Source: a virus
Virus record (IMG/VR): IMGVR_UViG_3300033156_000150
Location: 20,947-84,946 of that record
Strand: one strand, 5' to 3'
DNA: 64,000 nucleotides
The position numbers and the translations under genes were made by a program. Positions 2,606 through 35,671 of this stretch are shown piece by piece; the stretch's first letter is position 1; each line of letters opens with the position of its first letter. The notes under the pieces are model-generated. The model did no database searches and was not told the origin of the DNA. It worked only from the letters and a program-made list of their open reading frames with translations.

Positions 2606-3670
2606 ATGGGAACGATCACGATCACAAAGAACTGGGAAGTGGACGGAGTGTTGACTGATGTGACGTCGGCCAAACTATCCGACCCGACGGGGACTTATGG
2701 CGTGAAGAGGAACGACACGGGAGAGGTAATTGTCCCCGATGGTACAGACATGACCAAGGTAGGCACGGGCCAGTATAGCTATCAGTTCACTGAGCCGTCG
2801 GATGGTCTAACTTACACAGCCTACGTGGAGATCGTCTATGGTGGCAACACATACTGGTTTGAAGAGGACATCACAGGAACGACTACGGGAATTGTGTCAT
2901 CTGAGGAAGTGCAACAGGAGATGGGTATAAGCTCGGCAACGGCGATGGAGTTGGCAATCATACAAACGGCCATAAAGAGGGCCGAACGGGCGGTCAAGCG
3001 TTACTTGCGTTACGATCCAGTCAAGCGACAGCGGACGGAGTTCTATCCGCGAGGGCCAGTGACTGCGAGCGGATGGGTGAGGTGGGAGGCATCGGAGACG
3101 GAGGCGTATCTGAGGAGATATGGTACGGGTAGGGCAGACGAACTGATCCTGCAACACATTCCTGTTCGCAATATCGACTACTTGTATGTGGACTATGACG
3201 GACGCTTCGGACAGCAGAGCGGGGCGTTTAGTGACAACACACTCAAAGCGGAAGGTACGGACTATTGGTTGAGTTTCGACATGCTTGACGATTCGGGCAA
3301 AGGTATCTGCTTTGATGGCATCCTTCGATGCGCTGGTACGTGGCCTGCCGAGCCGGGCACGGTGAAGGTGGTTTATACGGCGGGATATAGCAGTGACGAG
3401 TTGCGAGGAAACTTGTCAATCATCGACGCTTCGCCGATCTGGGAGAGTGTGTTGGAAGAGGCGGTGCGGCGAGCCAAGAAGGCGTTGACGCAGGCGAAGG
3501 CGTCGGGAATAGGACACTTCCCGGGCATACTTGTCAGCGAGTCTTTGGGAGACTATCACTACAGTGTTGACGTGGCAACGGCAAGGTCATTGTTTGGAGG
3601 TGTATGGGATGTCTCTGGAGCTACAAGGGAGCGTTTGAGTCCGTTCATTCATTGGGGGATGATGTTATGA
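2606..3670 (+). CDS. Head-tail adaptor (gp6/gp15-like) with extra N-terminal beta domain
   Basis: AERAVKRYL helix, LQHIPV, VKVVYTAGYS and SESLGDYHYS motifs are typical of head-tail connectors. Confidence 0.7.
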   Translation: MGTITITKNWEVDGVLTDVTSAKLSDPTGTYGVKRNDTGEVIVPDGTDMTKVGTGQYSYQFTEPSDGLTYTAYVEIVYGGNTYWFEEDITGTTTGIVSSEEVQQEMGISSATAMELAIIQTAIKRAERAVKRYLRYDPVKRQRTEFYPRGPVTASGWVRWEASETEAYLRRYGTGRADELILQHIPVRNIDYLYVDYDGRFGQQSGAFSDNTLKAEGTDYWLSFDMLDDSGKGICFDGILRCAGTWPAEPGTVKVVYTAGYSSDELRGNLSIIDASPIWESVLEEAVRRAKKALTQAKASGIGHFPGILVSESLGDYHYSVDVATARSLFGGVWDVSGATRERLSPFIHWGMML

Positions 3671-3852
3671 CCGAGCAAAGGGATTTGTCGGCGTGGTTGT
3701 CAGAATTGGATCAGGCAGCAGAGCAGGTAGCCGAAACAGTGGCAACCATGTGGTGGGCTATTTTCCGTAGGTTGGTAGAAAAGGGTTTCAGTGAGGAACA
3801 GGCTGTTGAGATAGTAAAGGCAATGGTACATGGCCGAGGTTATTTACCATGA
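3667..3852 (+). CDS. Small hypothetical protein
   Basis: ATGA overlap with the upstream stop; LVEKGFSEEQAVEIV helix. Confidence 0.6.
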   Translation: MTEQRDLSAWLSELDQAAEQVAETVATMWWAIFRRLVEKGFSEEQAVEIVKAMVHGRGYLP

Positions 3853-4714
3853 TCCGCTGCGGGTTGTGCGCCCGGGCAGAGGTGAGGTCGATTTGGAAGG
3901 ACTCTGGGCAGGACAGCCCGGTTTTCTCGTTTGTGGTGGTCCGAGTCTGTCTAAGGTGGACCTGTCGTTACTGCGCAGTAGGGGAGTTGTGTCGGTTGGA
4001 GTCAACAACGCAGCCGCATGGGCGCCGGTGAAGGCTTGGACGTTTGGGGATACACAGAACAAGTTTCATCATGGGCTATTCCTCGACCCTGGTGTTATGA
4101 CGTTTGCTCCCATTCCGAAGTTGAGGAAAACGATACACGTGAAGCGAGACGGAAGGTTCTACGCAACTGATGTAAGGGTAGCCGACTGTCCGAACACGTA
4201 TGGATACGAGCGCCGCACGATGTTTGTGCCACATACTTTCTTCACCGATCCGTGGGCACACTGGGGCAGTGGCAAACATCAGCCTCCTGGTGAGGAAGGG
4301 GTTGGATGTTTATGTACGATGTTGCTTGGTTTGCGGTTGTTGATATATCTTGGTGTGAGGAAGGTATATTTATTGGGTGTTGATTTCTGTGGTACTGAAG
4401 ATGGCAAGTGCTACGGTTTCCCAAATGAGAAGCCGATTCGTCGTAAAATAAAGTGGAGGTATCCAAAGGAGCGTAAGATGTTGGAGTTGTTGATGCCGGA
4501 AATGGAGAAGAGAGGGATCGAGGTTTTCAACGTAGGGCCTTGTACTAAGTTGGATTTGTTTCCAAGGGTATGGTATGAGGATGCGATCGAGGATTGTTGT
4601 AAGGGAGTAGGGAAGGAGCCCTTGGATACAACTGATTGGTATAACAGGAGGGCACATAGGGAGGCTGAGGCGTGTGGTGTGTCGTTGAGGAAGAGTGAGT
4701 TACTTCGGATATAG
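3830..4714 (+). CDS. Maf/DUF115 (MptE-like fold) putative glycosyltransferase, copy 1
   Basis: FLVCGGPS, GVNN and LLGVDF motifs; clear paralog of 27854-28822. Confidence 0.65.
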   Translation: MAEVIYHDPLRVVRPGRGEVDLEGLWAGQPGFLVCGGPSLSKVDLSLLRSRGVVSVGVNNAAAWAPVKAWTFGDTQNKFHHGLFLDPGVMTFAPIPKLRKTIHVKRDGRFYATDVRVADCPNTYGYERRTMFVPHTFFTDPWAHWGSGKHQPPGEEGVGCLCTMLLGLRLLIYLGVRKVYLLGVDFCGTEDGKCYGFPNEKPIRRKIKWRYPKERKMLELLMPEMEKRGIEVFNVGPCTKLDLFPRVWYEDAIEDCCKGVGKEPLDTTDWYNRRAHREAEACGVSLRKSELLRI

Positions 4715-4730
4715 TTGGAGGATATATGCA

Positions 4731-5138
4731 ATGACGAAGCTGTCGGAAAGGAACGGAAGAGGAGAGTCTAGGCGGATTGTAAAAAGGACGGTGAGTGGAA
4801 AACCGCCTGTGAGAAAGGAAGTTAACCACACAGTTCAACCATTGGAGTGTAAGGAATCTGTTGCTATGCAGGTAATGTCTTGGTTTCAGGTGTTTGTTTT
4901 GATTGTCGGATTCGCTTTGGGCATGTTCATCGCGTTGGAGATGTGGTCGGTACGTATGGAGAAGCGGGCAGTAGGTAGATTGCAACAACTTTGGCAAGCG
5001 TTAGAGGAGGAAGTACAGGCAGCAGAAAAGGCGGCGGAGATGGAGATACTTGAGAACAAAGTGTTTGCACCATACCCTGGTGAGTTTTCTGTGTTTGAAG
5101 GAAAGGAAACTATTGAGGAGGGAGGAATGCCTAAGTAG
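4731..5138 (+). CDS. Single-pass membrane protein sharing KVFAPYPGEF with the tape measure protein
   Basis: GGAGG before ATG 4731 (alternative start 4866); hydrophobic FQVFVLIVGFALGMFIAL followed by a coiled coil. Confidence 0.65.
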   Translation: MTKLSERNGRGESRRIVKRTVSGKPPVRKEVNHTVQPLECKESVAMQVMSWFQVFVLIVGFALGMFIALEMWSVRMEKRAVGRLQQLWQALEEEVQAAEKAAEMEILENKVFAPYPGEFSVFEGKETIEEGGMPK

Positions 5139-5152
5139 TTAGAGGAGGTCGT

Positions 5153-5458
5153 GTGATGAGACATCTACTGGGATTTGTTGCGTGGCTGCTTGCGGGGACA
5201 CTAATCGCTTTCGTGTGGCTGCTTGTCGAGGTATTTTGTTGTCTCTTTTTGGGAGTGTTTGTCTCGGCGGAGAAGGCGGAGAGGGTAAGTGATTTGATGT
5301 CAGTTGGCCTTGCGTTCTACGTGTTGTTGTGGCCTATCACTTACTTGGTCTGGGCGGCGTATAGGGTGCTAAGTTGGTGGTCTGCATCCATGGAGCAACA
5401 GTATGGGAGCATGCAGAATGGGAAGGCCCGAACCGAAGCGTTGCGAAATCTGCGGTGA
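5153..5458 (+). CDS. Small membrane protein (about 2 TM segments)
   Basis: GAGGAGG RBS; two long hydrophobic stretches. Confidence 0.6.
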   Translation: MMRHLLGFVAWLLAGTLIAFVWLLVEVFCCLFLGVFVSAEKAERVSDLMSVGLAFYVLLWPITYLVWAAYRVLSWWSASMEQQYGSMQNGKARTEALRNLR

Positions 5459-5633
5459 GTGGATACGTTTCCCCGTCCCGCGCCGGATGCCTGATGGGAG
5501 GGTAATGATTGTATGCTCTGAATGTTCAGAGGATCCGGCGGAGCAGGCGCCGAAGAGGGAGCATGTGAAGGATCGGGCAGCGTTGCATGATATGGAGTAT
5601 CATGGAGGCCGTTTTCACGCTGGTGAATGGTGA
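5403..5633 (+). CDS. Small zinc-ribbon protein
   Basis: CEIC...CSEC. Confidence 0.5.
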   Translation: MGACRMGRPEPKRCEICGEWIRFPVPRRMPDGRVMIVCSECSEDPAEQAPKREHVKDRAALHDMEYHGGRFHAGEW

Positions 5634-5968
5634 GGTTTGCACACATGACGCTAGACGAGTATCAAGAGAGAGCGAGAGGAACTGCCTTCTATCCGTTACA
5701 CATGCTCTACGTGTCCATCGCTCTTGCTGGCGAAGTAGGAGAGTTGGCGAATCAGGTCAAGAAGTTGACACGCGACGACCTGCCGGATTACGATTGGAGG
5801 GACGTCTTGCCAAGGCAACAGATACCGACAGACAGGTATGAGCGGATTGTTGATGAGCTAGGCGACGTGTTGTGGTATGTTGCAGCTATGGCGAGTGAAT
5901 TGGGTGTTTCGTTGGAGGAGGTTGCAAAGCGAAACTTGACCAAGCTAACTGAGAGACATGGGAGATAG
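5627..5968 (+). CDS. mazG: MazG-like NTP pyrophosphohydrolase
   Basis: LAGEVGELANQVKK ... DELGDVLWY ... NLTKL. Confidence 0.9.
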   Translation: MVRFAHMTLDEYQERARGTAFYPLHMLYVSIALAGEVGELANQVKKLTRDDLPDYDWRDVLPRQQIPTDRYERIVDELGDVLWYVAAMASELGVSLEEVAKRNLTKLTERHGR

Positions 5969-5970
5969 CG

Positions 5971-6342
5971 ATGTCGCTGTTGGACCAATTGCCGCACAGA
6001 TGCACGATCCGGAGGCGGGTAAGGACTATCGATGTTCTTGGCGGGGCAAAGGATACACTTGAAACGGTGGCGACCGATGTCCCTTGTTGGGAACAAGCCG
6101 CTGGGTCAGGGGAAATTGAAGAGCACAGGCAAAGAGGGCAGGTTGTGACTCACAAGGTGTATTTCACAACGGACTATGGTTTTGACGAGCGTTATCAGAT
6201 TGAGATAACGTCTCGCAATGGAGAGTCTGTTGATGAGGAGCCGAGCGAGGTGGTGGAGGTGGCTGAGCCAGATGCTTCCATGGCGTTTGGCATTGTGTAT
6301 CGTGTGTTTGTGCGTCGTTATACTGGTGAACTAGGACCGTGA
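5971..6342 (+). CDS. Head-closure protein (SPP1 gp16-like)
   Basis: HRCTIRR..DVLGG..DVPC..THKVYF pattern and size. Confidence 0.65.
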   Translation: MSLLDQLPHRCTIRRRVRTIDVLGGAKDTLETVATDVPCWEQAAGSGEIEEHRQRGQVVTHKVYFTTDYGFDERYQIEITSRNGESVDEEPSEVVEVAEPDASMAFGIVYRVFVRRYTGELGP

Positions 6343-6635
6343 AAGGAGGGACAGAGATGCCTGTGTTGCGGGTAAACTCTAATATGGATCAAGCGTTGGA
6401 CAGGGTATCGGAATCGCTAGCAAAGGCAAAAGAGGCCGGTTCATTTATGGTTGCTGTGTGGCGTGTCGAGGGGAACGAGGTTCATTTAGATCGCCACACG
6501 TGGGAATTTCCAGTAGGGCGATTTAAGGAAGCTGAGGAGATGTTGGGCAAGGCCAACGAGAGAGAAGTTTCTGGGAGCGTTGAACCTGATTTGTTGCCAA
6601 TAGCTGAGTGGTGCAGAGGAGACTACCATGTTTAG
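6339..6635 (+). CDS. Hypothetical protein
   Basis: Fills the gene string; AGGAGG before an internal ATG. Confidence 0.55.
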   Translation: MKGGTEMPVLRVNSNMDQALDRVSESLAKAKEAGSFMVAVWRVEGNEVHLDRHTWEFPVGRFKEAEEMLGKANEREVSGSVEPDLLPIAEWCRGDYHV

Positions 6636-7098
6636 TTGGTTGTTTTCGTGGGTTCCATTGCGATGGATGCGGCCAGCTGAAAAGGAAGCGCAGTTGTGGA
6701 GTCGCAAGGTGGAAAGACTTGTCCGGCGGCTGCAAAAAGCCGAACATCGCTTGCGTGTTGAGCGTAATCGCTTGGCTTCTTTGCAATCGGATATAGAGAT
6801 GTGGGAAGCTGAGTTGTTTAAGCGAGTGAGGGCTAGAGGGGCGGAGGAGCTGGAAAAGACTGAAAGGAGGAAGCGAGAGGTGGAGTCGTTGCTAGACGAA
6901 GCTAAGCAACTGATTGCCGATGAACAGCGGATTGTGAAGGCATTGGAGGAAGAGAACCGAGTTCTCAATGACACAGTTATTCCAGCATTGGTGGCTGGTA
7001 ACCGTTTGATCCAAGAAAGGTGCGGTGCGGAGATCGCAAAGGCAGCAGCGTTACAAGGTATGCTTCAAAGGGGCGAGCGAAACGGCACGGCACAGTAA
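6628..7098 (+). CDS. Coiled-coil hypothetical protein
   Basis: E/R/L-rich heptads; overlaps both neighbours. Confidence 0.6.
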   Translation: MFSWLFSWVPLRWMRPAEKEAQLWSRKVERLVRRLQKAEHRLRVERNRLASLQSDIEMWEAELFKRVRARGAEELEKTERRKREVESLLDEAKQLIADEQRIVKALEEENRVLNDTVIPALVAGNRLIQERCGAEIAKAAALQGMLQRGERNGTAQ

Positions 7099-7406
7099 TG
7101 GACCCGTGGAATTTTGAAGATGTAAAGCGGTTTTTGCGAGAGCGATTTCCTTTAAGGAATTATCGCCTCTACATAAGGCTACAAGAGCCGGCGTGTGGTG
7201 AGGATGGCTACACGTCAGTGTCTAGGAGTGAACGTACAATTACTATTCTTGTGAATCCTAGACAGTCGTTGTCTAACAGGATCCATACTCTTCTGCATGA
7301 GTATGCCCACGCTTTACATCTGGATCGAATTGAGTGGCATGGGCGCCAGTGGTCTAGATTGTATGCTGAGTGCTATACAGCATGGGAAAAGTTGTCTGGG
7401 GAGTGA
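7098..7406 (+). CDS. Small zinc metallopeptidase-like protein (SprT/ImmA-like)
   Basis: TLLHEYAHAL followed by HGRQW. Confidence 0.7.
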   Translation: MDPWNFEDVKRFLRERFPLRNYRLYIRLQEPACGEDGYTSVSRSERTITILVNPRQSLSNRIHTLLHEYAHALHLDRIEWHGRQWSRLYAECYTAWEKLSGE

Positions 7407-7408
7407 GT

Positions 7409-7870
7409 ATGCCAACACCTGAGTTGACTGAGGATGTATTGAAGGAGGCAGTTAGAGCATATAACAAGGCAGGAAGGAACTTGTCGAAAGCTGCGAGGGA
7501 GCTTGGTATTTCAAGGGAGAAGTTGCGTTATAGGCTAGCAAAGGCAAAGGCGAGAGGAATAGGATCGGGAAATGCGAGTTATTCGAGAGAGGAGTTCTTG
7601 GAGGTTGTTGATTGGAGGCGCAAACTGGAAGCGGTGGTGGATGGTGTGTTGAGTAGGCTTAGTGCTGATGAGATTATTGGGGATCAGGAAATGCGAGTCG
7701 TGTATTGTGGAGTTGGCAACAACGGACGGTGGCGGGAGGTTACACGGAAGAGGAAGTATGACCAGTATAGGTTTGTATGTGGGAGGCGAGTATGGTGGGC
7801 TCGGAAGGAAACGGTCAAGTGGGCTCTAGCTAACGTAACGGGAGCGCGTCCATATGGCGGGAAAGAGTAA
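7409..7870 (+). CDS. Fis-type HTH DNA-binding protein
   Basis: NLSKAARELGISREKLRYRL. Confidence 0.75.
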   Translation: MPTPELTEDVLKEAVRAYNKAGRNLSKAARELGISREKLRYRLAKAKARGIGSGNASYSREEFLEVVDWRRKLEAVVDGVLSRLSADEIIGDQEMRVVYCGVGNNGRWREVTRKRKYDQYRFVCGRRVWWARKETVKWALANVTGARPYGGKE

Positions 7871-8951
7871 GTACACTAGGCAGGAGTTTAAGGGGGAATA
7901 TGACCCGGCAGAGGAAGTTAGATTTCTCCGAGCTGAGGTGCGGAGGTTAGAGGGTCAGTTGGAGAAGGTGAAGCAGGAGACAGGGATGGTGCGGATACTG
8001 ATGGAGGATGTGAAGGAGGCGATTAAGGCGCTGCCTCCGGTGAAGAGGCGCAAAGGTAGGCAACGTAAGGTTTCCAAGGTGAGTTCGCCCGTTGTGTATG
8101 TGAGTCACTGGACAGACTGGCACATGGGAGCGATTCAGGATCCGGCGGAGGTTGAGGGATTTGGGGAGTTTAGTCCGGAGATTCTGGAGAGGAGGATAAT
8201 GGATTGTGTTGAGCGGCAGTTGGAGTGGGTGGAGTTACACAGGTCAAACTATCGGATTGAGGAGTCTGTTGATCTGGTGACGGGCGATCTGATAAGTGGG
8301 GGCATACATGATGAACTCTTGTGGACTAATGCCTTTCCGGAGCCAGTGCAAGCGATAAGAGCTGGTGAGCTCCTGGCGCGGGTGGTTGCTAGAAAAGCCG
8401 CGGAGTTCAAGAAGGTGGTAGTTCACTTTGTCACGGTTGATAATCATGGTCGCCTGACAAAGCGCAAGCAACATCAGGAGGCGGGGTACAATTGCTGGGG
8501 GTATGTAATCGGTTTCTACGCCAAGGAGAGGTTGCGGGAGCACAAGAATGTGGAGTTCAATGTGTATCCAGTGACGCAACAGGTGGTGCAGGTGAGCAAC
8601 AGACGCTACCTCCTGACGCATGGCGACAGGGTGAGGGCGTGGATGGGTTTCCCCTACTATGGACAGGAGAGAAAGATCAGTCGTGAGGCGTCCAGGCGTA
8701 TGCGTCGGGCACTGGACGAGTGGCGGAAAGGCGTGTTGCTTGATGACGGTGTGGAGGTCTTGTTTGACCTACTGGTCGGTGGGCACTGGCATGTACCAAT
8801 GACCCACTGTTTGTACTGGCTGGGGGGCAGCGCGTGCGGCACAACGGCATACGATCATAGTCAGGGTAGGTGGGCTGAGCCGAGCCAGCCGTCTTGGCTT
8901 GTGCATCCAAAGCATGGTGAATTTGACAGAACCGATTGGAGGTTGAGATGA
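7854..8951 (+). CDS. Calcineurin-like metallophosphoesterase with N-terminal coiled coil
   Basis: DWHMG, GDLISG, DNHGR, THGD and GHWH motifs. Confidence 0.85.
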   Translation: MAGKSKYTRQEFKGEYDPAEEVRFLRAEVRRLEGQLEKVKQETGMVRILMEDVKEAIKALPPVKRRKGRQRKVSKVSSPVVYVSHWTDWHMGAIQDPAEVEGFGEFSPEILERRIMDCVERQLEWVELHRSNYRIEESVDLVTGDLISGGIHDELLWTNAFPEPVQAIRAGELLARVVARKAAEFKKVVVHFVTVDNHGRLTKRKQHQEAGYNCWGYVIGFYAKERLREHKNVEFNVYPVTQQVVQVSNRRYLLTHGDRVRAWMGFPYYGQERKISREASRRMRRALDEWRKGVLLDDGVEVLFDLLVGGHWHVPMTHCLYWLGGSACGTTAYDHSQGRWAEPSQPSWLVHPKHGEFDRTDWRLR

Positions 8952-9274
8952 CTGCTGAAGAACATTACAAGCGGATCTTGGAAGAGATCAGAACGTTGCA
9001 CGAGGCTAAGGGTGCTGATTATGGATCCGATGAGGATCCGTTTGCTAACCTTCGGGCTAGCGAGCAGTTTGGTTTGCCTGCGTGGGTTGGTGTTGCAATA
9101 CGTATGCAGGACAAGATGACTCGCATACAGTCATTTGTGAGGAAAGGTTTTTTGGAGAACGAGTCCGTAGAGGATTCGTTTCTCGATCTGGCAAATTACG
9201 CCATGTTGGGCTTGGCTTTGATGAGGGAATCGCGCGATGAAGACAGAGATCCCGCCCCGCATGGTGACACATAG
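8948..9274 (+). CDS. Nucleotide-modification-associated all-alpha protein (DUF1599-like)
   Basis: KGADYG..DPFANL..IRMQDKMTR..ESVEDSFLDLANYA. Confidence 0.75.
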   Translation: MTAEEHYKRILEEIRTLHEAKGADYGSDEDPFANLRASEQFGLPAWVGVAIRMQDKMTRIQSFVRKGFLENESVEDSFLDLANYAMLGLALMRESRDEDRDPAPHGDT

Positions 9275-9830
9275 CGGCTTGTGTATCGATCTGGAAAACA
9301 TCACTCCCAGGGATTTGCGGATTAGTGACATAGCTCATTCTCTATCTCTGTTATGTCGGTTTGGTGGGCACTGTTCTAGATTCTGGAGTGTGGCGGCCCA
9401 TTGCCTCATTTGTTGCAGGCAGGCCAACATGGATGGTATGTCGTCAATGGTTCAGTTTGGATGCTTGTTGCACGACGCAGCTGAAGCATATTGGCAGGAC
9501 CTTGGTGCTCCTCATAAACGGTGTCAAGGAATGGAGGGTTATGTCCGCAGGCTTGAATTGACACAGGAGTTGATCTATAATTCGTTTGGAGCTAAGTTGA
9601 ACGAAGAGGAGAGGTGTCAAGTTAAGTACATTGACCTCAGAGTATTGGCTGCGGAGGCGTCCTTGTTGATGAGGGACAAGGGAAAGGAGTGGTTGGTGCT
9701 GGAGAATGTGGAGCCAGCACAGCTAACGTATAGGGATGTCAATTGGTTGTCGAGTCCGAAGATTGTGGAGAACATGTATATTAATGAGTTCAGTAGGCTG
9801 TATGCTGAAGTGAACGAGGAGTGGAATTGA
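9237..9830 (+). CDS. HD-domain 5'-deoxynucleotidase-like protein (YfbR/YfdR family)
   Basis: DIAHSLSLLCRFGGH..SVAAH..LLHDAAEAY..D. Confidence 0.85.
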   Translation: MKTEIPPRMVTHSGLCIDLENITPRDLRISDIAHSLSLLCRFGGHCSRFWSVAAHCLICCRQANMDGMSSMVQFGCLLHDAAEAYWQDLGAPHKRCQGMEGYVRRLELTQELIYNSFGAKLNEEERCQVKYIDLRVLAAEASLLMRDKGKEWLVLENVEPAQLTYRDVNWLSSPKIVENMYINEFSRLYAEVNEEWN

Positions 9831-9860
9831 GCTGATCAGCAAGCTAAGGGGAAAGACGGC

Positions 9861-11483
9861 ATGTCCTCGCTGCAAAAAGCAATTTCAAATATCAATATGC
9901 TGGTCGGTACAGCAAAGGCGACAGCAACACGGAGCCAAAGAGAGGATTCTATTTTGTCCAGTGGAGTTTCTTCCACAGCGGTTCCCGTAGCTTCCTCGCG
10001 CTATAAGGAGCGGTACAATCTATTCAGGGGATGGGTTTATGCGGCCATCAACGCAATCTCTAGTGAAGCTGCATCAATGTCTGTTAATGTTGCTCGTCGG
10101 AAGAAGTCATCCAAGAAACGGCCAGCATATCAAGCCATTAAGTCGTTGAGGGAACAGAAGGAAGTGTATGACTATGAGGAGGTGTTGTCTGATGATAGCA
10201 TCACAACAGTAATTGAGCAACCGAACGAGTTTCAGACTCGTGTGTCATTTGTATATTCGTTTGTTGCTAATCTGTGCCTCACAGGGTGGAGTTTTGTTGT
10301 AGTCGAAGCTAAAAAGGGTGATGGTGATTTGCCTGGCATACGGTTGTATGCGTTGCCGACTACGTGGATCCATCCGAATCACAGGGAGCGTCCGTTCGGT
10401 TCGTTTTTTGTTGGTGGGCCAGCATCCTCAAAGGCGGATTGGGTAGAGCTGCCTAGGGAGAACGTGGTGTTTGCTCACCTTCCGAACCCGGCTAATCCTT
10501 TGGGTGGATATGCGCCGGCGGCGGCTGTCCTCCCGGCGCTGCGCATTGATGATCACATTCAAACGACGCAAGAGAAGTTTTTTGAGCGAGGCATCTTCCC
10601 GTCCGTAGTGATTACGGTTGGAAAGGACCCGCACCCTGAAGCGCCAGGGGGTGGTTGGCGTCCCCGTTTGACTCCCGAGCAAAGGCGACAGATAGCGACG
10701 GCGATTAAGAAGCTCTGGGCTGGGGTGGAAAATTATGGGGAGCCGGCTATTGTTGATGGGCTTATCGAGAGGATCGATCGTTTGTCTGCTACTCAGCACG
10801 AGCTTGGATGGCAAAGATCTGAGGAAACAATCCGCACTAGAATCCTCTCGGCTTTCGGAGTGCATCCGTTCATTCTCGGCGAAAGTGTGCCTGGTAGTTA
10901 TGCTCAGTCGGCCATTATTGAAAGTCGCTTTTACCGGCGGGTCAACTTCTATACGGAGATGTTGAGCAATGTGGTAACCCGTGCAATTTCAAACGTATTA
11001 GGAAACGAGGATTACATCGTATGGTGGGACCGGGCGGAACCTACCGATCCGTCATTACATTACACGAACCTTCGTTATGCTCGGAGCATCGGGGACATCA
11101 GCCAAAAGGAGTTCAGAGCGTTGATGGGGTTGCCAGACGATCCCGATGGTCAGGAATCAGCGATTCTGCCGTCACAACTGGCTCCGTTGACACAGCTATT
11201 GGTTCAGATTGGGGCTGGTGCTATTCCTGGACCGCAAGCGGAAGCGTTGCTAATGGCTGCTGGCTTGCCGAGGAAATTGGCAAGACAAATTGCAAATCCA
11301 CCGAAGGGAGTTGGTGGTACGGAAAGCCGAGCTCCGCAGGGAGGAGGCGAAGAGGGGAGAAGCGAGGGGGAGAGTATTGATGAGCTGGAAAGTGAATTGA
11401 GGGAGCGTTCCCTGCAATTGCTTCAGCAGTTGCCCCAGGTGTCAAAGGACTTGCTTGATGAGTATGACAGGGGAATAGAATGA
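9861..11483 (+). CDS. Portal protein (HK97 family)
   Basis: WVYAAINAIS, IEQPNEFQT, LCLTGWSF, FFERGIFPS, ILSAFGVHP and EFRALMGLP. Confidence 0.9.
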   Translation: MSSLQKAISNINMLVGTAKATATRSQREDSILSSGVSSTAVPVASSRYKERYNLFRGWVYAAINAISSEAASMSVNVARRKKSSKKRPAYQAIKSLREQKEVYDYEEVLSDDSITTVIEQPNEFQTRVSFVYSFVANLCLTGWSFVVVEAKKGDGDLPGIRLYALPTTWIHPNHRERPFGSFFVGGPASSKADWVELPRENVVFAHLPNPANPLGGYAPAAAVLPALRIDDHIQTTQEKFFERGIFPSVVITVGKDPHPEAPGGGWRPRLTPEQRRQIATAIKKLWAGVENYGEPAIVDGLIERIDRLSATQHELGWQRSEETIRTRILSAFGVHPFILGESVPGSYAQSAIIESRFYRRVNFYTEMLSNVVTRAISNVLGNEDYIVWWDRAEPTDPSLHYTNLRYARSIGDISQKEFRALMGLPDDPDGQESAILPSQLAPLTQLLVQIGAGAIPGPQAEALLMAAGLPRKLARQIANPPKGVGGTESRAPQGGGEEGRSEGESIDELESELRERSLQLLQQLPQVSKDLLDEYDRGIE

Positions 11484-11923
11484 GTAAGTTCGTGGAACAA
11501 AAGAAGAAAGAGTTGCGGCGAGTTGTTTCGCGAGCGCTGTCCGTTGTAATGGCTGAGTATGCCACTCGTGTGTATGAGTTGTTGGACAAGTATATGCTTC
11601 ACTTGTCATACAAGCGGGCAAGTTTTAGAGCGGTGAACCGGATGTCTGAGAGGTTGGCTAAAGTCATTGCTAGCGAGCTGAAGGAGTTTTCGAAGAGGTT
11701 GGAGAAGGGGGCAGGTAAGAAGGAAGCAACGTCAGATGCAATAAACTACGTAGAGGAGAACTGGGATGCCAGTGGGTTTAAGAAAAAACTGGTTGACGAA
11801 GCGTTTGTGGAGGTAGCTAGCGAAATGGTGCGGGAAGCGTGGAGGGCATTGCATCAGGAAACTACGAGAATGGAAAGACGTGGCTTGATATCGATTAGCG
11901 GGAAGGGTAAAGGGGGTGAGTAA
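11480..11923 (+). CDS. Helical hypothetical protein between portal and MuF
   Basis: Translationally coupled on both sides; could be a detached MuF N-terminal part. Confidence 0.6.
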   Translation: MSKFVEQKKKELRRVVSRALSVVMAEYATRVYELLDKYMLHLSYKRASFRAVNRMSERLAKVIASELKEFSKRLEKGAGKKEATSDAINYVEENWDASGFKKKLVDEAFVEVASEMVREAWRALHQETTRMERRGLISISGKGKGGE

Positions 11924-13146
11924 TGGCGTCAACTGCTAGCGAATGGTTACAGGGAGAAGGTAGGTGGCAGGAACTAGAGGAGTTGTTGAAAGGAGCGGTA
12001 GCTCCAGACGTGTTGAAGTTGTGGTTTGAACTGCCAGATGACATAAAGCAAACGATTGCCGACCGGTTATATGATACGTTTTCTCAAGGCTACTGGGACG
12101 ACATTGTTGGTACGATTAAGAGCGACGTGGGAAAGTTCTTGGTGATGGGATTGCAGGAAGGATGGTCGATTCCCAGGATAGTGCGAGCCGTTGCAGTGGA
12201 GTTCATGGGGTCGACGTGGGGCTATGCCAAGCGGAGAGCGACGAATATAGCTCGTACTGAGATGACCCACGCAATGAACGGCGCGAGGGTTGCTTCCAAC
12301 AGTTATCTCAAAAGTAGGTATCCAGACTTGCCTATGCGCCAGGTCTGGCTGAGCGTATTGGGTCCTACTACTCGGCCAGAGCACGCTGCGTTGGACAGTG
12401 TGCCTGAGGACGAGAATGGTTTGTGGAACCTGGTTGGATACAAGGTGCCGTGGCCTGGACACTACGGTCTGCCTCCTGAGCAACGCTGCAACTGTCAGTG
12501 TACGGTAGTGATGGAGTATGGGCTCAAGGCTGCCGGGCTCAAATACAACCCTTACCACGACCCTCAAACGGGGAGATTTACTTTCGCACCGGGAGGATTG
12601 CCTGCCGCGTCGAAGGGGACGCTAGCCAAGCTGCGGAAAAGGATTCAAACTGTGAAGGTTGGAGGGGAGCGAGGGAAACCTTCGAAGAGGGTTGCAGATC
12701 GGGTCATTGATTACATGGCTCTTCACCCTGATAGTGTTGTTAAAAGTATTGGTGGGATTTCGATTGTTGACAGGCAGGAGTGGAATAATGAGTATGTCAG
12801 ACAGGGAGGCAGGAGCTACGAAGAGGGTTGGAGTGTTCAAGCATTCATTGTTTTTAGGACCGGGCATATTTTCCTAAAGAAAGGCTTTAAGGAGCTATGT
12901 CTTCATCATGAGGTTGGTCATCTAGTAGCAAGACAGTCCAAGGCATACAAGGAGTGGAGGGCCAGGTATAATATAGATCCGTCGTTTGATCGCCATACGG
13001 AATACTCAAAGACCGGTGGTCCGGAGGAAGCCTTCTGTGATTCCTATGCTGCATACATCGCTGCTAAGGGACAGGCCAAGAGTGATGAATATCGCGCGAC
13101 ATTCAAGATGGTGGAGGAGGTGATTCATGGACTTCGTACACATTAG
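11923..13146 (+). CDS. MuF/SPP1 gp7 head morphogenesis protein with C-terminal zincin domain
   Basis: RATNIARTE, TRPEH and CNCQC MuF motifs; linker KYNPYHDPQTGRFT; HHEVGH ... EEAF. Confidence 0.85.
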   Translation: MASTASEWLQGEGRWQELEELLKGAVAPDVLKLWFELPDDIKQTIADRLYDTFSQGYWDDIVGTIKSDVGKFLVMGLQEGWSIPRIVRAVAVEFMGSTWGYAKRRATNIARTEMTHAMNGARVASNSYLKSRYPDLPMRQVWLSVLGPTTRPEHAALDSVPEDENGLWNLVGYKVPWPGHYGLPPEQRCNCQCTVVMEYGLKAAGLKYNPYHDPQTGRFTFAPGGLPAASKGTLAKLRKRIQTVKVGGERGKPSKRVADRVIDYMALHPDSVVKSIGGISIVDRQEWNNEYVRQGGRSYEEGWSVQAFIVFRTGHIFLKKGFKELCLHHEVGHLVARQSKAYKEWRARYNIDPSFDRHTEYSKTGGPEEAFCDSYAAYIAAKGQAKSDEYRATFKMVEEVIHGLRTH

Positions 13147-13345
13147 AACGGGCCGGCCGTTCAAAGGAACGGTGCCTGACGTCTTCTACCTCCCCGTGGC
13201 GAAGGGATTGGGAACTGGTGTTGTGAAGGCGACGAAGGACGATGAGGAATCGGTTGTGAGGTGGATGTTTCTGCATGGCTACGTTCCTAAGAAGGGAGGG
13301 GCAGTTGGCAGCTCGAGCAGCGGAGGAAAGCAAGATGGGAGGTAA
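13127..13345 (+). CDS. Small hypothetical protein directly after MuF
   Basis: GGAGG RBS; overlaps the MuF stop. Confidence 0.5.
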   Translation: MDFVHIRTGRPFKGTVPDVFYLPVAKGLGTGVVKATKDDEESVVRWMFLHGYVPKKGGAVGSSSSGGKQDGR

Positions 13346-13652
13346 TGGTCACGTAGAGTTCCTGAGGCCCAGTAATCCCGACCTGATTGCCTTAGCGGAT
13401 GCAGTAGCTACCCGCTTTGTGGAATTGTGCGGCGCGTGGGAGCGGGTCCGGGGAGTTCGCCTGCAAGTGCCTGTTAGCCTTTTGAGTGATGTGAACAAGT
13501 GCAGAAGGGTTCGGCAGCGCCACAAGATGGGCGACTTTCGTCACCTTCCGTCTGAGTGGAAGGCTCTTAAGACGGTGGCTCAGTGGCTTGTTGATATGAA
13601 CTGCGAGTTGAGGGGTCAAAAGAAAATCAAGGTTCAGTGGTCTGATGAATGA
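13335..13652 (+). CDS. Hypothetical protein
   Basis: GGAGG upstream; overlaps neighbours. Confidence 0.5.
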   Translation: MGGNGHVEFLRPSNPDLIALADAVATRFVELCGAWERVRGVRLQVPVSLLSDVNKCRRVRQRHKMGDFRHLPSEWKALKTVAQWLVDMNCELRGQKKIKVQWSDE

Positions 13653-13854
13653 CTTGCGTTGCATCAACACGCTCAGGGGGAACCCGTGTCTCAATACCTT
13701 CATCAGGTCGCTTGCTCGGTTTGACAAGTTGTTCTGCGACTGTGTAGCTGAAGGTGTTGACTTTACTCTCAAGCTAGAAGTACGTGGGGACAAGGGAAGG
13801 TTGATTCACTGTCGGGTTTATGCCGACAGGTTTGAAAGGCCTTCGGATTCATGA
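13645..13854 (+). CDS. Small hypothetical protein
   Basis: Coupled to the upstream ORF. Confidence 0.55.
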   Translation: MNDLRCINTLRGNPCLNTFIRSLARFDKLFCDCVAEGVDFTLKLEVRGDKGRLIHCRVYADRFERPSDS

Positions 13855-13864
13855 GGCACCCGTC

Positions 13865-13893
13865 TTGACTTTTGAAAAAGCATGTTGTATGAT
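13865..13893 (+). promoter_or_regulatory. Sigma70-type promoter
   Basis: TTGACT-17 nt-TATGAT in an intergenic gap. Confidence 0.7.
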
Positions 13894-13920
13894 TTATATG
13901 GTGTGAGGTCAAGGCGCGGG

Positions 13921-13965
13921 AGAGACCGGCTGCGACTTTGGTTGGTTGCAGACGGTTTCTTTTTT
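13921..13965 (+). terminator. Intrinsic terminator-like hairpin in the leader
   Basis: AGAGACCG-G-CTGCGACT / GGTTGCAG-A-CGGTTTCT stem followed by a T run. Confidence 0.55.
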
Positions 13966-13978
13966 AGTGGAGGTTTCA

Positions 13979-14503
13979 ATGAGCAAGAAAGTTACGTTCT
14001 ATCTGGGTCCGGCAAGCGGTTTGAGTAAGCGTCAGTTGACGATCACTCGTATGCCGAAGGCAGGCGACGATGATACGCCTTCGGCGACGGTTAATGCGAC
14101 GCTTGGCGCAACGACGACTATCACTACACAAACGCTACCGGATAATCAGATTTGGCAGGCGAAGTTGGTGGATACTAAGACGAGTGGTGAAGTAAGCGAC
14201 CCGGATATCCTTAACTTCCATACTGGCTCGCTTCAGTTTCCTGGGCCGAGATCACCGGATCGCTTGTCGATTCTCAGTATGGAAGACATGAGCTCAAGTA
14301 GTAGTTGCAGTTCGACCAGTAGTGGGAGTTCAAGTAGCTGTAGCAGCACGAGTTGTAGTAGCACAAGCAGTGGGAGTTCAAGTAGTTGTAGTAGCACCTC
14401 GAGCAGTTGCAGTGAATCTGCGGGAAATGAGAGCAGCAGTTGCAGCTCAGTATCCTCTTCGTGTTCGAGTAGTGTGAGCAGCAGTTGCAGCTCTGGTCTG
14501 TGA
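13979..14503 (+). CDS. Beta-rich protein with 70-aa Ser/Cys/Thr C-terminal tail
   Basis: GGAGG RBS; tail at 14291-14500. Confidence 0.75.
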   Translation: MSKKVTFYLGPASGLSKRQLTITRMPKAGDDDTPSATVNATLGATTTITTQTLPDNQIWQAKLVDTKTSGEVSDPDILNFHTGSLQFPGPRSPDRLSILSMEDMSSSSSCSSTSSGSSSSCSSTSCSSTSSGSSSSCSSTSSSCSESAGNESSSCSSVSSSCSSSVSSSCSSGL

Positions 14504-14517
14504 TAAGGGAGTTAGAA

Positions 14518-14799
14518 ATGCGTCAAGTTAACCGAAAGGCCGTCTTGGCTCTGGCGTTACATGGGTCTCAGTCCGAGGCGGAGGCCCTGAAGCAGGTGGT
14601 TGATGGAGCAGTGGAGCGGCTCGGTCTGGGCGGGGAGCCAGCCCCCTCCCCGCTCAGGCCCGGTGGGGGTGCGGTGAGGATGGATACTACTCGACCGTCC
14701 TTGCACGACGTAATTGCGTGGCTAGAGAATCCGCCGAAGGCTGACTACCTGTTTATCCGACGCCTGCAAGAAACGCTAAAGTTGCGCTGTGGGGGATAA
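14518..14799 (+). CDS. Hypothetical protein
   Basis: AAGGGAG RBS; contains a strong internal GC hairpin near 14623-14660. Confidence 0.45.
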   Translation: MRQVNRKAVLALALHGSQSEAEALKQVVDGAVERLGLGGEPAPSPLRPGGGAVRMDTTRPSLHDVIAWLENPPKADYLFIRRLQETLKLRCGG

Positions 14800-14800
14800 C

Positions 14801-15091
14801 ATGCCTTACCTTGGTTATCAACAAATCATAGTCAGCGACAAGGTGATGAGCGCTCCGGATTTCGACTGGCCGGCAGGGGCAACCCACGCGGAGTTGCAAG
14901 CTGAGGATCAACCCATTCGGTACACGATGGACGGAAAGACGAATCCGACGCAAACAACTGGAATGATCTTGCGAACAAGTGCGGATCCCGTGATGTTTAC
15001 TGTGGATGACTTGCGCCGGATGCGGTTCATACGGGGAGCTGCTAATGATGCAAAATTGAATGTCCACTACTTTGCCGGGAGGATCGTCTGA
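14801..15091 (+). CDS. Small beta-rich putative virion protein
   Basis: QAEDQPIRYTMDGKTNPT..G motif; coupled to the protease gene. Confidence 0.6.
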   Translation: MPYLGYQQIIVSDKVMSAPDFDWPAGATHAELQAEDQPIRYTMDGKTNPTQTTGMILRTSADPVMFTVDDLRRMRFIRGAANDAKLNVHYFAGRIV

Positions 15092-17274
15092 TGCCTAGGG
15101 TAGGCCGTGCTGCTAAAGGCAACCACATACAATCGGTCTTGTTTAATAAAGATTTCTGGACCAAGGCCGAGGCTGTGAAGTGGTTGAAAGACAACTCGAC
15201 TGAGTCCCGCAAGTTCTATACGGATGGATTTGACAAGGGCGGCGGGCAGTATATGCGCTTCCGACAGTACGACCCGGACCCCGATACGTTCCGCTATCGC
15301 AACAAAGTTGTGAAGGAGGAAGATGGTCAACCTTCGATTGTTTTTGTGCTAGGCTTCTCAAAAAAGCAAGCATCGGAAGCGACGGAGAAACTGCTCAAAG
15401 CAGTGCGGCGACGTGGGTCAGAAGGAGTGCGGTTCGGTTATGGTATCTTGACAGCCGATAAGTTTGTTGAGTCGATGGCGCAGATGGTTGGCATCGACGT
15501 TTGCTATCAGTACGGCTGTCGTGGTAACACCAGCTTCTACGACGTGATGCAGAAAGCCGCGCGGACCTTGTGTTACAGTGATGAGGGTATGGAAGTCGAA
15601 GCTGCGGAGCATCGCTTCAAGAAGTTGGTGCCTAAGGGAGTAAAGTTGCCGAAGAACACCCTCATGGTGTTTCGTCACAAGTTGACGACCTGTGACCTGG
15701 ACCGCGATGGAGACATCATGCACCCCGAAGGGGCTTTGTTGGATCCAAGGATGTTGCTGTTGTGGCAGCATACTCACACGATGCCGATTGGGAAGTACCT
15801 ATACACGGCAAGGCAGGATGAAAAGGAGCTCGTTGTCGTTAGCTGTATCGTGGATATCAATGATTTGAGCCATGATGCGGCTGTGATGATTGACAACGAC
15901 ATGGGCAGATTTAGTCATGGGTTCCGGGCGTTGGAGTTTACTGAGCGAAAGAACAAGGATGGGAAACCTGGCTTTGAGGTGACTTCATTTGAAATCATGG
16001 AGGAATCGTTGGTTTCCGTGCCGGCGAATCCCGATGCCGATACGGAAGAGATCCTTTTGGGTTTGGTGGACAAAGGCAAACTGACAAGTCCGATGTTGAA
16101 GGAATATAGCCGTGCGATTCGAGAACACAGACCGAAACAAGCGCCGGGCTGGTCTCCAACAGGAGACGGCACATCAGCCGAAGGTAGCAAAGGGACTGGA
16201 GACAGCAGAGGAGAAAAAGACAAAGAAGGAGAAGCGAAAGTTGCCGGTGGTAAAGTGAAGGACGAGATGGCTGCTGTTTCCACACGGCCATCCATCTACG
16301 GTATTGCTGGTAGTTTTGAGCAAGTGCGAGCGGACCTTTCGTCGGCGCTAAGGGATTTCCTGGCGGATGCTGGGGTAATTAACAATCGCAATGATCGGGA
16401 GTGGGCTGCGGTTGCCGCCACGTTCCAGGACTATGTGATAGCGGAGGTTCACAGGGGGGACGGTGAGCAGGAGTTTTATAGGATATCTTGGAGGCAGGGG
16501 GAGCGAGGTGCTGAGCTAACTGGAGATCCCCAAAAGGTTGAAGTGACGGAAACCATTGTGATTCGCGATGCGGAGGGTAAGATGTTGGGGACTATTCCGA
16601 TGAAAGCGAAGAACGTGACCCTGTATTCGGCTGGGTATAGCCAGGCAAAGAGCCTCGTGAACAGAGGCAAGGTGACAAAGGCAACCAAGTGGGAGCCGGC
16701 GTCATCGGAGGCGGAAAACACCTACATTGAGGAACATGGTATGGAGGCGTTTGCTAAGTGGCACTTGGGCAAGCGTTCTGGGGTGGATGAGGACAACAAA
16801 GGCGCGTGGGCATATCCGTATAGCAATGATTTCAAGACAGTCAACTCGAAGGCTTTGGTGGCCATTAGGGTGCGTGCGGCGCAGCAGGGTGAGAGGGATG
16901 TTTTTGAGGCGGCCGGGAAGCTACTGGAAGCTATCAAGAAACGCGATGAAGGGAAGGACGTTGACGATTTGTTGGACGTCAAGGTTGGTCGTGTGTTGAA
17001 CAGACAAAACGAAAGCCGTTTGCGTGACGCCATTAGCAACATTGACGAGGCGTCAAAGATTGAGGGACTGTCGAGACGCGATCGTGCGTTGTTGCGAGAA
17101 ACGATGCGACTCTTGCAAGATGTTTTGTCTGAACTCGATAGTGATGGGAAGCAGGTAGATGATGAAGAAGTTTCCGTTGAGGAAGCGATTGCGGTTGTGT
17201 TGAACAAGACGACACCGATCCAGCGCGAGCGATTGATGAAGGCGTTGGAGGTGCTGGCGAAAACTCGAAAGTAA
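15091..17274 (+). CDS. Prohead protease (HK97 type) with large extra domains
   Basis: DRDGDIM, LLWQH...PIGK, FSHGF and EESLVSVPANPDA; lies just upstream of the capsid gene. Confidence 0.9.
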   Translation: MPRVGRAAKGNHIQSVLFNKDFWTKAEAVKWLKDNSTESRKFYTDGFDKGGGQYMRFRQYDPDPDTFRYRNKVVKEEDGQPSIVFVLGFSKKQASEATEKLLKAVRRRGSEGVRFGYGILTADKFVESMAQMVGIDVCYQYGCRGNTSFYDVMQKAARTLCYSDEGMEVEAAEHRFKKLVPKGVKLPKNTLMVFRHKLTTCDLDRDGDIMHPEGALLDPRMLLLWQHTHTMPIGKYLYTARQDEKELVVVSCIVDINDLSHDAAVMIDNDMGRFSHGFRALEFTERKNKDGKPGFEVTSFEIMEESLVSVPANPDADTEEILLGLVDKGKLTSPMLKEYSRAIREHRPKQAPGWSPTGDGTSAEGSKGTGDSRGEKDKEGEAKVAGGKVKDEMAAVSTRPSIYGIAGSFEQVRADLSSALRDFLADAGVINNRNDREWAAVAATFQDYVIAEVHRGDGEQEFYRISWRQGERGAELTGDPQKVEVTETIVIRDAEGKMLGTIPMKAKNVTLYSAGYSQAKSLVNRGKVTKATKWEPASSEAENTYIEEHGMEAFAKWHLGKRSGVDEDNKGAWAYPYSNDFKTVNSKALVAIRVRAAQQGERDVFEAAGKLLEAIKKRDEGKDVDDLLDVKVGRVLNRQNESRLRDAISNIDEASKIEGLSRRDRALLRETMRLLQDVLSELDSDGKQVDDEEVSVEEAIAVVLNKTTPIQRERLMKALEVLAKTRK

Positions 17275-17286
17275 AGGGAGGTAACT

Positions 17287-18921: not shown

Positions 18922-18934
18922 TGTGTTGTTATGC

Positions 18935-19013
18935 GACGGGGAGCTGGCGGGGCAATTCGGCCTGGTCCTTCCCCCCGCCAGCGTCCCTGTCTCCAATGTG
19001 AAGGACCAGGAGG
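18935..19013 (+). promoter_or_regulatory. Predicted H-type pseudoknot overlapping the next RBS
   Basis: Stem 18935-18952/18973-18991; loop CCTGGTCCTTC is exactly complementary to GAAGGACCAGG (19000-19010). Confidence 0.6.
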
Positions 19014-19019
19014 ATTTCA

Positions 19020-19607
19020 ATGAGTGCTACAGCAGAGGTGACAAAAGTTCGGCCGTTTACTATTGAAGCGGATCACCCGCGCAATTGCGACTTGCTAATT
19101 CAAAGCATTCCGGGTTGCAAGCTGCGTGGAGCGGTTAGTGCTTCAAAGCCTGCCTACACAAGGGAAGGCCAGCCGCCTATGATTCCGAGGGATCAAGCAC
19201 GGCATCTTGGCGCGCTCCCTCCAATTCCTGGCATGCGACTGACGGTCAATCCGGAGGCTTGTACGTACATGATCACCGACCCGCTACACGACGACGAAGC
19301 GTTGTGTCGGCAAATCGAAGCCGGACTGAAACGGGAAGGGAGAGTCGTTGGCAAGGTTGAAGGAGTTCCGCCAAAGTCAGGGAAGTTGGACGTCCATCGA
19401 ATGAAGACGTTGTGCCGTGAGCTTGCTCACTTGGTAAACATTGGCCACGCTCGTGTGGTGAAGGGTCAGTTGCCGACCAAGGAGCAGATTGATGGGATGC
19501 CTGGGAACTATTTGTTGAACCCGGGAAGTAGAGTTCCCAACACTCAACCGCGATTTGAAAAGGACTTTGACGAGTGGGTGGCGAGACTGAATCAGCAAGG
19601 AGGTTAG
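19020..19607 (+). CDS. Hypothetical protein after the capsid gene
   Basis: AGGAGG RBS; 195 aa. Confidence 0.75.
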   Translation: MSATAEVTKVRPFTIEADHPRNCDLLIQSIPGCKLRGAVSASKPAYTREGQPPMIPRDQARHLGALPPIPGMRLTVNPEACTYMITDPLHDDEALCRQIEAGLKREGRVVGKVEGVPPKSGKLDVHRMKTLCRELAHLVNIGHARVVKGQLPTKEQIDGMPGNYLLNPGSRVPNTQPRFEKDFDEWVARLNQQGG

Positions 19608-22136: not shown

Positions 22137-22568
22137 ATGACAGCAGCAAATACACTCGCAGGAACCAATGGCAAGTTGGTTGTTGACAACCAGCTTGTTG
22201 CTCGCGTAACACAGTGGCAGGTGAGCCCCCGACTGGCACAAACCAGTGAGTGGGGAGACAGTGATTCAGCCGGTTATACGAATAGACTGGCTGGGCGGAA
22301 GGATGCAACTTTCACGTGCGAGGGAAAGTTCGATAGCAGTGATGAGCAGTATGATCTGTTTCAGCCAGGAGATCAAGTTTCGGCGGTTTTGTGGATGGAC
22401 GATTCATCGTTGTATTGGGACTTTCCTAGAGCCGTGTGTACTGAATTCAATTTGACCGTGAACATCGACACTGGAGAGGTAATTGGGTGGACTGCGACGT
22501 TTGGTGCAGATGGCCCATTCTATTATCCTGGCCAGGCTGGTGCAGGTAACAGATCGCTACCCTCATAA
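22137..22568 (+). CDS. Tail tube (major tail) protein
   Basis: 143 aa; GxxGKL start, LAGRKDATFTCEG, WTATFGADG; precedes the chaperone and tape measure genes. Confidence 0.8.
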   Translation: MTAANTLAGTNGKLVVDNQLVARVTQWQVSPRLAQTSEWGDSDSAGYTNRLAGRKDATFTCEGKFDSSDEQYDLFQPGDQVSAVLWMDDSSLYWDFPRAVCTEFNLTVNIDTGEVIGWTATFGADGPFYYPGQAGAGNRSLPS

Positions 22569-22600
22569 GACCTGTGTATTTCAAGAAAGGAAGGACCGCT

Positions 22601-35624: not shown

Positions 35625-35671
35625 AGCTAATGGAGGGAGGAGAAAAAGCCTAGGAGTAAAGGAGAGACGCC

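Follow-up and report, generated by a model that had tools for sequence, protein, structure and literature searches.

We analyzed the gene at positions 4731-5138 of a 64,000-nucleotide stretch of phage DNA (the window: bases 20947-84946 of the 84,946-base virus record IMGVR_UViG_3300033156_000150, which belongs to an uncultured phage, has terminal repeats and is rated complete), and find that it is a real, intact accessory gene encoding a single-pass membrane protein. The last ~50 residues of this small protein are an old paralogous copy of the stretch that follows the last hydrophobic helix of the phage's own tape measure protein (TMP), and within this copy both proteins carry the same ten residues, KVFAPYPGEF. 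We propose, tentatively and with somewhat less than even confidence, that the shared peptide is an exposed docking or cleavage site that makes the small protein a membrane-anchored stand-in for the TMP. The features of the two genes are as follows, where pLDDT is the predicted local distance difference test score.

4731-5138, + strand: small gene, 135 residues (P0002), with a basic N-terminal stretch of 46 residues, one strong hydrophobic helix, a long helix extension, the motif and an acidic tail
4869-4946, + strand: predicted membrane helix of the small protein, residues ~47-72 (hydropathy; pLDDT >90 over residues 50-70)
4977-5129, + strand: TMP-homologous segment of the small protein, residues 83-133 (51-residue local alignment, score 91)
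5058-5087, + strand: core motif copy 1, KVFAPYPGEF, residues 110-119 (the model helix ends at V111)
23532-25793, + strand: TMP gene, 753 residues (P0001; PF06791, phrog_27166)
24468-24530, + strand: last hydrophobic stretch of the TMP, residues 313-333 (hydropathy)
24552-24689, + strand: TMP residues 341-386, homologous to the small protein (sequence alignment)
24627-24656, + strand: core motif copy 2, KVFAPYPGEF, TMP residues 366-375, predicted to open a non-helical linker between two long helices

A peptide shared by a small membrane protein and the tape measure protein

The peptide is encoded twice, each time in frame within a + strand open reading frame (ORF): copy 1 reads AAAGTGTTTGCACCATACCCTGGTGAGTTT (5058-5087), and copy 2, in the TMP gene, reads AAGGTGTTTGCACCATATCCTGGTGAGTTT (24627-24656). 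A preliminary description of this DNA had reported both loci, and we recover them as described: 28 of the 30 bases are identical, and the two differences, AAA/AAG (Lys) and TAC/TAT (Tyr), are both synonymous. In a six-frame translation of the window, PYPG or relaxed patterns of it occur at just these two sites, and no further protein of the genome contains KVFAPYPGEF, as judged by the six-frame search of the window and an all-against-all comparison of ORFs.

The similarity extends well beyond the ten residues. BLASTP aligns the small protein with the TMP at 18 of 34 identical positions (E=6e-8), and the all-against-all comparison, which covered 293 + strand ORFs of the genome, pairs the two proteins at 43% identity over 51 residues (E=3.4e-6). 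The Smith-Waterman score of the pair is 91, a value reached by none of 2000 shuffled comparisons (36.6±5.2). The homology is ~50 residues long, with 10 of 10 residues identical in the core and ~30% identity outside it, and the flanks resemble each other at the protein level through AE..L before the core and EEG.M after it. The context given in the preliminary description also holds: a hydrophobic helix lies 33-38 residues ahead of the motif in both proteins, and the EEG-x-M sequence is present as EEGGM at residues 129-133 of the small protein and as EEGAM at residues 382-386 of the TMP.

The flanks are alike as protein and not as DNA, and the longest exact DNA runs common to both copies are 14 and 12 bases. 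Since these runs are shorter than any assembler word, the repeat is not a product of mis-assembly, an explanation that the preliminary description had named as one of two findings that would undo its idea and that we consider ruled out.

The small membrane protein

The small gene has an intact ORF with a strong Shine-Dalgarno sequence, GGAGGA, 7-8 nucleotides ahead of the ATG, and lies 14-16 nucleotides from its neighbors. Its product contains a single strong hydrophobic stretch (residues 47-72, Kyte-Doolittle maximum 2.34), preceded by 11 Lys or Arg residues in the N-terminal 46 residues and followed by four in the next 15, a charge distribution that suggests an orientation with the N terminus inside and the C terminus outside. 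In a single-sequence AlphaFold2 (AF2) model, the small protein forms one continuous helix from residue 38 to residue 111, with pLDDT >90 over residues 50-100, while the last 24 residues after the helix are non-helical and of low confidence.

No Pfam family matches P0002 at E<=0.01, and the sole PHROG match is marginal, to the function-unknown family phrog_14224 (E=0.0079). A signal peptide and a lipobox are absent; the only cysteine is residue 40, in the sequence PLECKES, and does not follow the hydrophobic stretch. In the ESM Atlas, the best feature score for the small protein is 0.77, below the level often reached by shuffled proteins, and the structure rows reflect merely one long helix. 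The small protein thus belongs to no described family.

A wider resemblance, in which the N terminus of the small protein would correspond to the N terminus of the TMP to give a "mini-TMP", was considered and rejected: hhalign gives E=0.095, the shuffle test against the whole TMP gives P=0.12, and the TMP ranks just fifth among the ORFs of the genome as a match to the N terminus of the small protein.

Structural setting of the peptide

The larger of the two proteins is identified as a TMP by PF06791 (35 bits against a cut-off of 30.2, E=1.5e-8) and by phrog_27166 (5.7e-37). Its N-terminal 250 residues are 49-50% identical to the TMPs of related phages, and the order of tail genes around it (22574-23224, 23281-23532, TMP, 25790-26692) is syntenic with positions 37764-41851 of the relative G002, described below. 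The first of these genes, 22574-23224, is a candidate tail chaperone gene together with the frame downstream of it.

We modeled TMP residues 276-435, again with single-sequence AF2; such models are indicative only, though long helices are usually well predicted. In the model, the last hydrophobic stretch falls within a helix spanning residues 314-368, whose final residue, F368, is the third of the motif; a non-helical acidic linker of 19 residues (369-387) comes next, and a long C-terminal helix then starts at residue 388. The helix of the small protein stops at the second motif residue, V111. In both models, KVFAPYPGEF lies at the end of a membrane-proximal helix, where a flexible acidic stretch begins, and because the peptide has this position in both, it is predicted to be an exposed linear peptide. 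Docking and cleavage peptides are typically found in such a place, where a helix ends and a flexible stretch starts. The features by which short linear motifs are recognized are present as well, in that the helix ends within the first residues of the motif in the single-sequence models and the core is better conserved than its flanks.

Age of the copy

We compared codon usage at residues that are identical in both proteins, asking what share of them is encoded by the identical codon, and set the values beside those of two old paralogue pairs of the same genome:

GT-like paralogue pair: 33 of 97 (0.34)
Other old paralogue pair (20587 / 21409): 38 of 109 (0.35)
Regions flanking the motif: 4 of 11 (0.36)
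Core of ten residues: 8 of 10 (0.80)

The flanks are synonymously saturated and look as old as the other duplications in the genome. The excess of identical codons in the core is significant against the 0.34 baseline (P=0.004) and from codon usage alone (P=0.01). The core would accordingly seem to be younger than its flanks or constrained as DNA, and either a short patch of gene conversion or a constraint at the base level could explain it. We favor selection on the core at the protein level, possibly with help from conversion, since the palindrome in the core, CACCA-N5-TGGTG, has no support from RNA folding in either copy.

Gene neighborhood and the accessory block

All long ORFs of the window lie on the + strand. 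The small gene is part of a block of genes between a head-tail adaptor gene and a conserved gene, and is directly preceded by a gene resembling those for glycosyltransferases (GT-like), a paralogue of which is found downstream of the TMP gene:

2606-3670: head-tail adaptor gene (phrog_442, 2.7e-11), left border of the block
3667-5968, + strand: lineage-specific accessory block, made up of a 61-residue ORF, a GT-like gene, the small gene, a membrane ORF, a Cys-rich ORF and MazG
3830-4714, + strand: GT-like gene 1, immediately before the small gene (phrog_4603 at 1.5e-5)
5153-5458: multi-helix membrane ORF, 101 residues, directly after the small gene
5403-5633: Cys-rich ORF, 76 residues
5627-5968: MazG (PF03819)
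5971-6342: conserved gene, 123 residues, right border of the block
27854-28822, + strand: GT-like gene 2, 2 kb downstream of the TMP gene (phrog_4603 at 2.7e-7)

Through the adaptor protein, we identified three relatives at 44-51% identity: G002, which is complete, 82.6 kb long and has ~50 genes in common with the phage at 30-60% identity, and G001 and G003, which are fragments (43% and 37% complete). In G002, the adaptor gene is followed after 80 nucleotides by a homologue of 5971-6342, so that the site of the block is empty. In G001 and G003, a gene resembling NAD-dependent epimerases/dehydratases stands directly after the adaptor gene (L005, 8795-9589; L007, 1329-2201). The block is absent from the site in all three relatives, two of which have a different insert there, and because the site is empty or otherwise occupied, 3667-5968 is an accessory block specific to this lineage, at a hot spot for insertions. 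As a side observation, the epimerase-like genes of G001 and G003 make the hot spot look prone to collecting sugar-related genes.

The two GT-like genes are 36% identical (E=5e-35), and the second has an MptE-like match of 17.5 bits, below the cut-off of 34.6. The single GT-like gene of G002 is 57% identical to 27854-28822 and 34% identical to 3830-4714; given that it is far closer to the former, which alone has its orthologue in G002, the gene beside the small gene would be an extra copy, either old or foreign. For the membrane ORF at 5153-5458, neither a family match nor a relative in viral contigs was found; its product may act together with the small protein.

Genes around the small gene are spaced by 14-16 nucleotides or overlap throughout. 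A search for a promoter of its own returned two promoter-like sites, against 4.0±2.5 in shuffled sequences, and neither lies upstream of the small gene. There is no sigma-70-like site upstream and no convincing terminator at the small gene, with the proviso that the promoter type of the host may differ from sigma-70. From the tight spacing and the absence of promoter- or terminator-like signals, the block is probably co-transcribed with the virion genes in a tightly packed operon, probably late in infection. The complete genome contains no match to the tyrosine or serine recombinase families (PF00589 and PF00239, which cover integrases and resolvases), and the phage is therefore probably virulent.

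Distribution of the small protein and of the motif

The small protein finds no relative but itself among 5.8 billion proteins (length range 74-237 residues), none among 1.84 billion representatives in a full phmmer pass, and only itself in viral contigs; it is not found in G001-G003, of which G002 alone is complete. Two further contigs carry an identical protein. The central region of the TMP (residues 335-480) likewise retrieves only itself at E<=0.01 among proteins of 414-1318 residues.

The motif or relaxed forms of it occur in none of 23 related TMPs (21 from databases, P0003-P0023, together with those of G002 and G003), where the 21 database relatives are conserved mainly in the first 250-300 residues. 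In a MAFFT alignment, VFAPYPG falls in a gap in the three nearest TMPs. Among the relatives at hand, the small protein and the TMP motif are absent together. A nine-residue motif pattern is found in no other viral contig, and an eight-residue pattern gives 21 matches in metagenome contigs, all in closed frames or unrelated contexts and at approximately the number expected by chance. A comparison of G002 with itself shows no paralogous pair of a TMP and a small ORF.

Genome contigs were also scanned with profiles. The adaptor alignment returned nothing, and the TMP alignment returned two distant matches only, in metagenome-assembled genomes of Rhodopirellula and Desulfofustis, which are too weak to name a host.

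Separately, contigs from three DNA runs labelled hydrothermal vent metagenome contain short pieces that are 90-100% identical to the window (14525-14697, 22248-22410 and others within 5397-19195), two pieces from run X2 being identical to it and related strains in runs X1 and X3 matching at 90-97%. The same or closely related phages are therefore present in those data sets. The matching pieces cover neither copy of the motif, and no RNA data set is listed as containing the phage.

Proposed function of the small protein

Because the same peptide is kept in both proteins at the end of a membrane-proximal helix, we infer one common partner. Both proteins would meet this partner at the cell membrane, with the peptide as its docking (or cutting) site, and the small protein would compete with the TMP for the partner or replace the TMP there. 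The outcome could take one of two forms: (i) the entry route would be closed to later phages of the same kind, or (ii), as the apparent co-transcription with virion genes would allow, the partner would be held off newly made TMP in the producing cell. That the peptide makes the small protein a stand-in for the TMP at the membrane is possible, and it is the reading that we put first.

A more specific version, which we hold to be unlikely, is superinfection exclusion by self-mimicry, where the small protein would be a TMP-derived, membrane-anchored decoy made by a virulent phage. Such a decoy would display the juxtamembrane peptide of the TMP and either occupy a host (or phage) factor that the TMP needs or poison the incoming TMP bundle, and DNA entry would be shut to sibling phages. 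Exclusion genes are often accessory genes, and so is the small gene, which occupies an insertion hot spot. Full-text literature searches returned no TMP-derived decoy by title or abstract.

The preliminary description had suggested a decoy that occupies the TMP partner, or a shared protease or docking motif. Its second half fares better: a selectively kept, exposed peptide at equivalent positions fits a docking or protease motif, and an exclusion gene of the prophage type is disfavored by the missing integrase and resolvase and by the missing promoter and terminator.

Several points weigh against the proposal that the small protein stands in for the TMP. The conservation of the peptide comes from one pair of sequences, with neither copy carried by any relative, and the excess of codon identity could stem from a short patch of gene conversion and not from selection on the small protein. 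The topology is guessed from charge, and the models are single-sequence models with pLDDT <50 over the tail of the small protein. With no integrase or resolvase found, the small gene is not a moron expressed from a prophage. No promoter- or terminator-like signal belonging to the small gene itself stands out, and probable late co-expression with virion genes runs counter to expectation for an early exclusion gene. Finally, both the partner and the exclusion activity are putative. The case is a lead from one genome without relatives, and not a demonstrated mechanism.

Alternative explanations

The best surviving alternative, in our judgment rather unlikely, is that the homologous segment is a remnant: a piece of the TMP gene would have been captured when the block formed and fused to an unrelated anchor, with short-patch conversion keeping the core alike, and the protein would have a function unrelated to the TMP, or none. 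Eight of ten identical codons in the core against saturated flanks is the pattern of a short conversion tract, and the phage encodes a recombination-type exonuclease (phrog_284). The adjoining GT-like gene, too, has a paralogue close to the TMP gene, which points to a block history of duplication or capture, and the small protein is without relatives in any search. However, conversion would require repeated recombination on exact identities of 14 and 12 bases, and a mere remnant would not readily explain an intact ORF with a good ribosome-binding site and operon-like spacing, flanks that are alike at the protein level, or core differences that are both synonymous.

The small protein might instead be a direct partner of the TMP, pairing with the homologous helix and linker and acting as a helper in assembly or ejection, or as a "poison subunit" that blocks formation of the channel. 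The homologous part takes in the long helix ahead of the motif, and co-expression with the virion genes is probable, as judged from gene spacing. There are precedents for the required contacts: TMPs are oligomeric helical bundles, a trimer being cited in one report (bioRxiv 10.64898/2025.12.12.693979), and T4 Imm is described as binding the TMP directly (bioRxiv 10.64898/2026.03.06.709160). The helices outside the core are merely ~30% identical, however, and the pairing would be a prediction from homology, and we consider direct partnership distinctly unlikely.

In several phages, tail maturation involves cleavage of the TMP, and the peptide could be a cleavage site at which one phage or host protease matures both proteins, with no role in mimicry. 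An exposed, proline-containing peptide at the end of a helix, with a flexible acidic linker after it in both models, would suit such a site, and the genome codes for a head maturation protease domain (phrog_80). Against this, the motif is present in no other protein of the genome, and a protease site reserved for two proteins, one of them an add-on, would be unusual; we regard a purely maturational role as less likely still.

A nucleotide-level element is very improbable. The 30-nucleotide core would then be an RNA hairpin or a protein-binding palindrome, CACCA-N5-TGGTG, found by chance in two genes. Genome-wide, the palindrome is confined to the two motif copies (expectation for the window, 0.10), its stem contains all four of the rare synonymous choices (GCA, CCA, CCT and GGT), and codon identity is in excess. 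RNA folding, on the other hand, is not above that of shuffled sequences (z = -0.86 and -0.95) and differs between the copies, the stem is only 5 bp long, the flanks are alike as protein and not as DNA, and two sites make no regulon.

Least probable of all is a lysis protein, an inner-membrane spanin or holin-type component with an incidental likeness to the TMP: the membrane anchor, the long helix and the multi-helix membrane ORF next to it (5153-5458) would fit, but there is no embedded + strand ORF of at least 40 residues, the next ORF reads LLAG-T with no cysteine or lipobox, neither the small protein nor its neighbors match a Pfam or PHROG lysis family, no lysin gene is nearby, and the helix begins only after a basic stretch of 46 residues.

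Other features of the genome

A promoter-like element is present in two copies that are 75% alike (35569-35625 and 62685-62741), each with a palindrome of the AAAATCCTGGAAATTCCAGGATTT type followed by TTGAC and then by a spacer ending in GCATGCTATAATA; these may be regulated early promoters with an operator. An exact 25-nucleotide repeat (34244-34268 and 61534-61558, core GGTTCGAATCC) resembles the T-arm and acceptor end of a tRNA, and despite this resemblance the window yields no tRNA or tmRNA call from ARAGORN. Positions 62181-62435, close to where the record ends, are an array of ~43-nucleotide direct repeats, with four overlapping 82-nucleotide copies at 67-76% identity.

Three ORFs of the virion region end in low-complexity repeats coding for Ser, Cys and Thr (14297-14500, 21152-21400 and 21994-22116), and the ORFs at 20587-21405 and 21409-22119 are paralogous (45% identical, E=5e-49). 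A second short common peptide occurs in this genome: a 17-residue patch, 76-88% identical, is present in three otherwise different proteins, encoded at 11923-13146 of the window and, ahead of the window, at genome positions 16233-17330 and 17365-17964. The N-terminal 51 residues of the latter two are almost identical, and the G002 counterparts of the patch proteins align to an 837-residue protein.

Comparison with known systems

Several recent studies identify the TMP as a point of attack on phage DNA entry, by T4 Imm, NBJ gp45, HK97 gp15 and the bacterial nuclease SNIPE (PMC13190303). In lambda, the TMP sits with host inner-membrane proteins during entry (PMC13190303).

Two envelope proteins encoded by temperate phages are comparable and have the TMP as their target. 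According to one report, Ltp of TP-J34 targets the TMP, and a two-hybrid assay shows gp45 of the mycobacteriophage NBJ interacting with a fragment of the TMP (bioRxiv 10.64898/2025.12.12.693979). Ltp is a lipoprotein and gp45 acts in a secretion-dependent way, in contrast to the protein described here, and neither is described as similar to the TMP. In a comparison of the same kind in the reference phage P1, SimA, SimB and SimC have no significant similarity to Sit (best E=1.1).

HK97 gp15 is closer in its genetic setting. It is a small inner-membrane protein made from an add-on gene in the virion/tail operon, and its exclusion activity depends on the tail/TMP region of the incoming phage (PMC3594210). 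The small protein is likewise a membrane protein from an add-on in a virion operon, here within a block absent from the relatives. It differs in three respects: (i) gp15 belongs to the YebO family, whereas the small protein has no Pfam match; (ii) gp15 derives from a host gene, whereas the small protein shares sequence with the TMP; and (iii) gp15 is a prophage-expressed gene product with a promoter and terminator of its own, whereas here neither such signals nor an integrase were found.

T4 Imm offers the nearest parallel for the site of action. This membrane protein is described as having four helices and as binding the TMP in the domain that directly follows the TMP membrane helix on its C-terminal side (bioRxiv 10.64898/2026.03.06.709160). 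Both Imm and the small protein are membrane proteins of a virulent phage (here probably so), and both point at the juxtamembrane region of the TMP. Imm has four helices and no reported likeness to the TMP, whereas the small protein has one helix, TMP-like sequence and no family match.

If true, exclusion by self-mimicry would be a mechanism that the descriptions of HK97 gp15, Ltp, Imm and gp45 do not include. A TMP-peptide copy of this kind would, if the proposal is correct, mark the part of the TMP that contacts a membrane partner, and the combination of a small membrane ORF with a peptide in common with the TMP would then be a signature, readable from sequence, for genes that block entry in uncultured phages.

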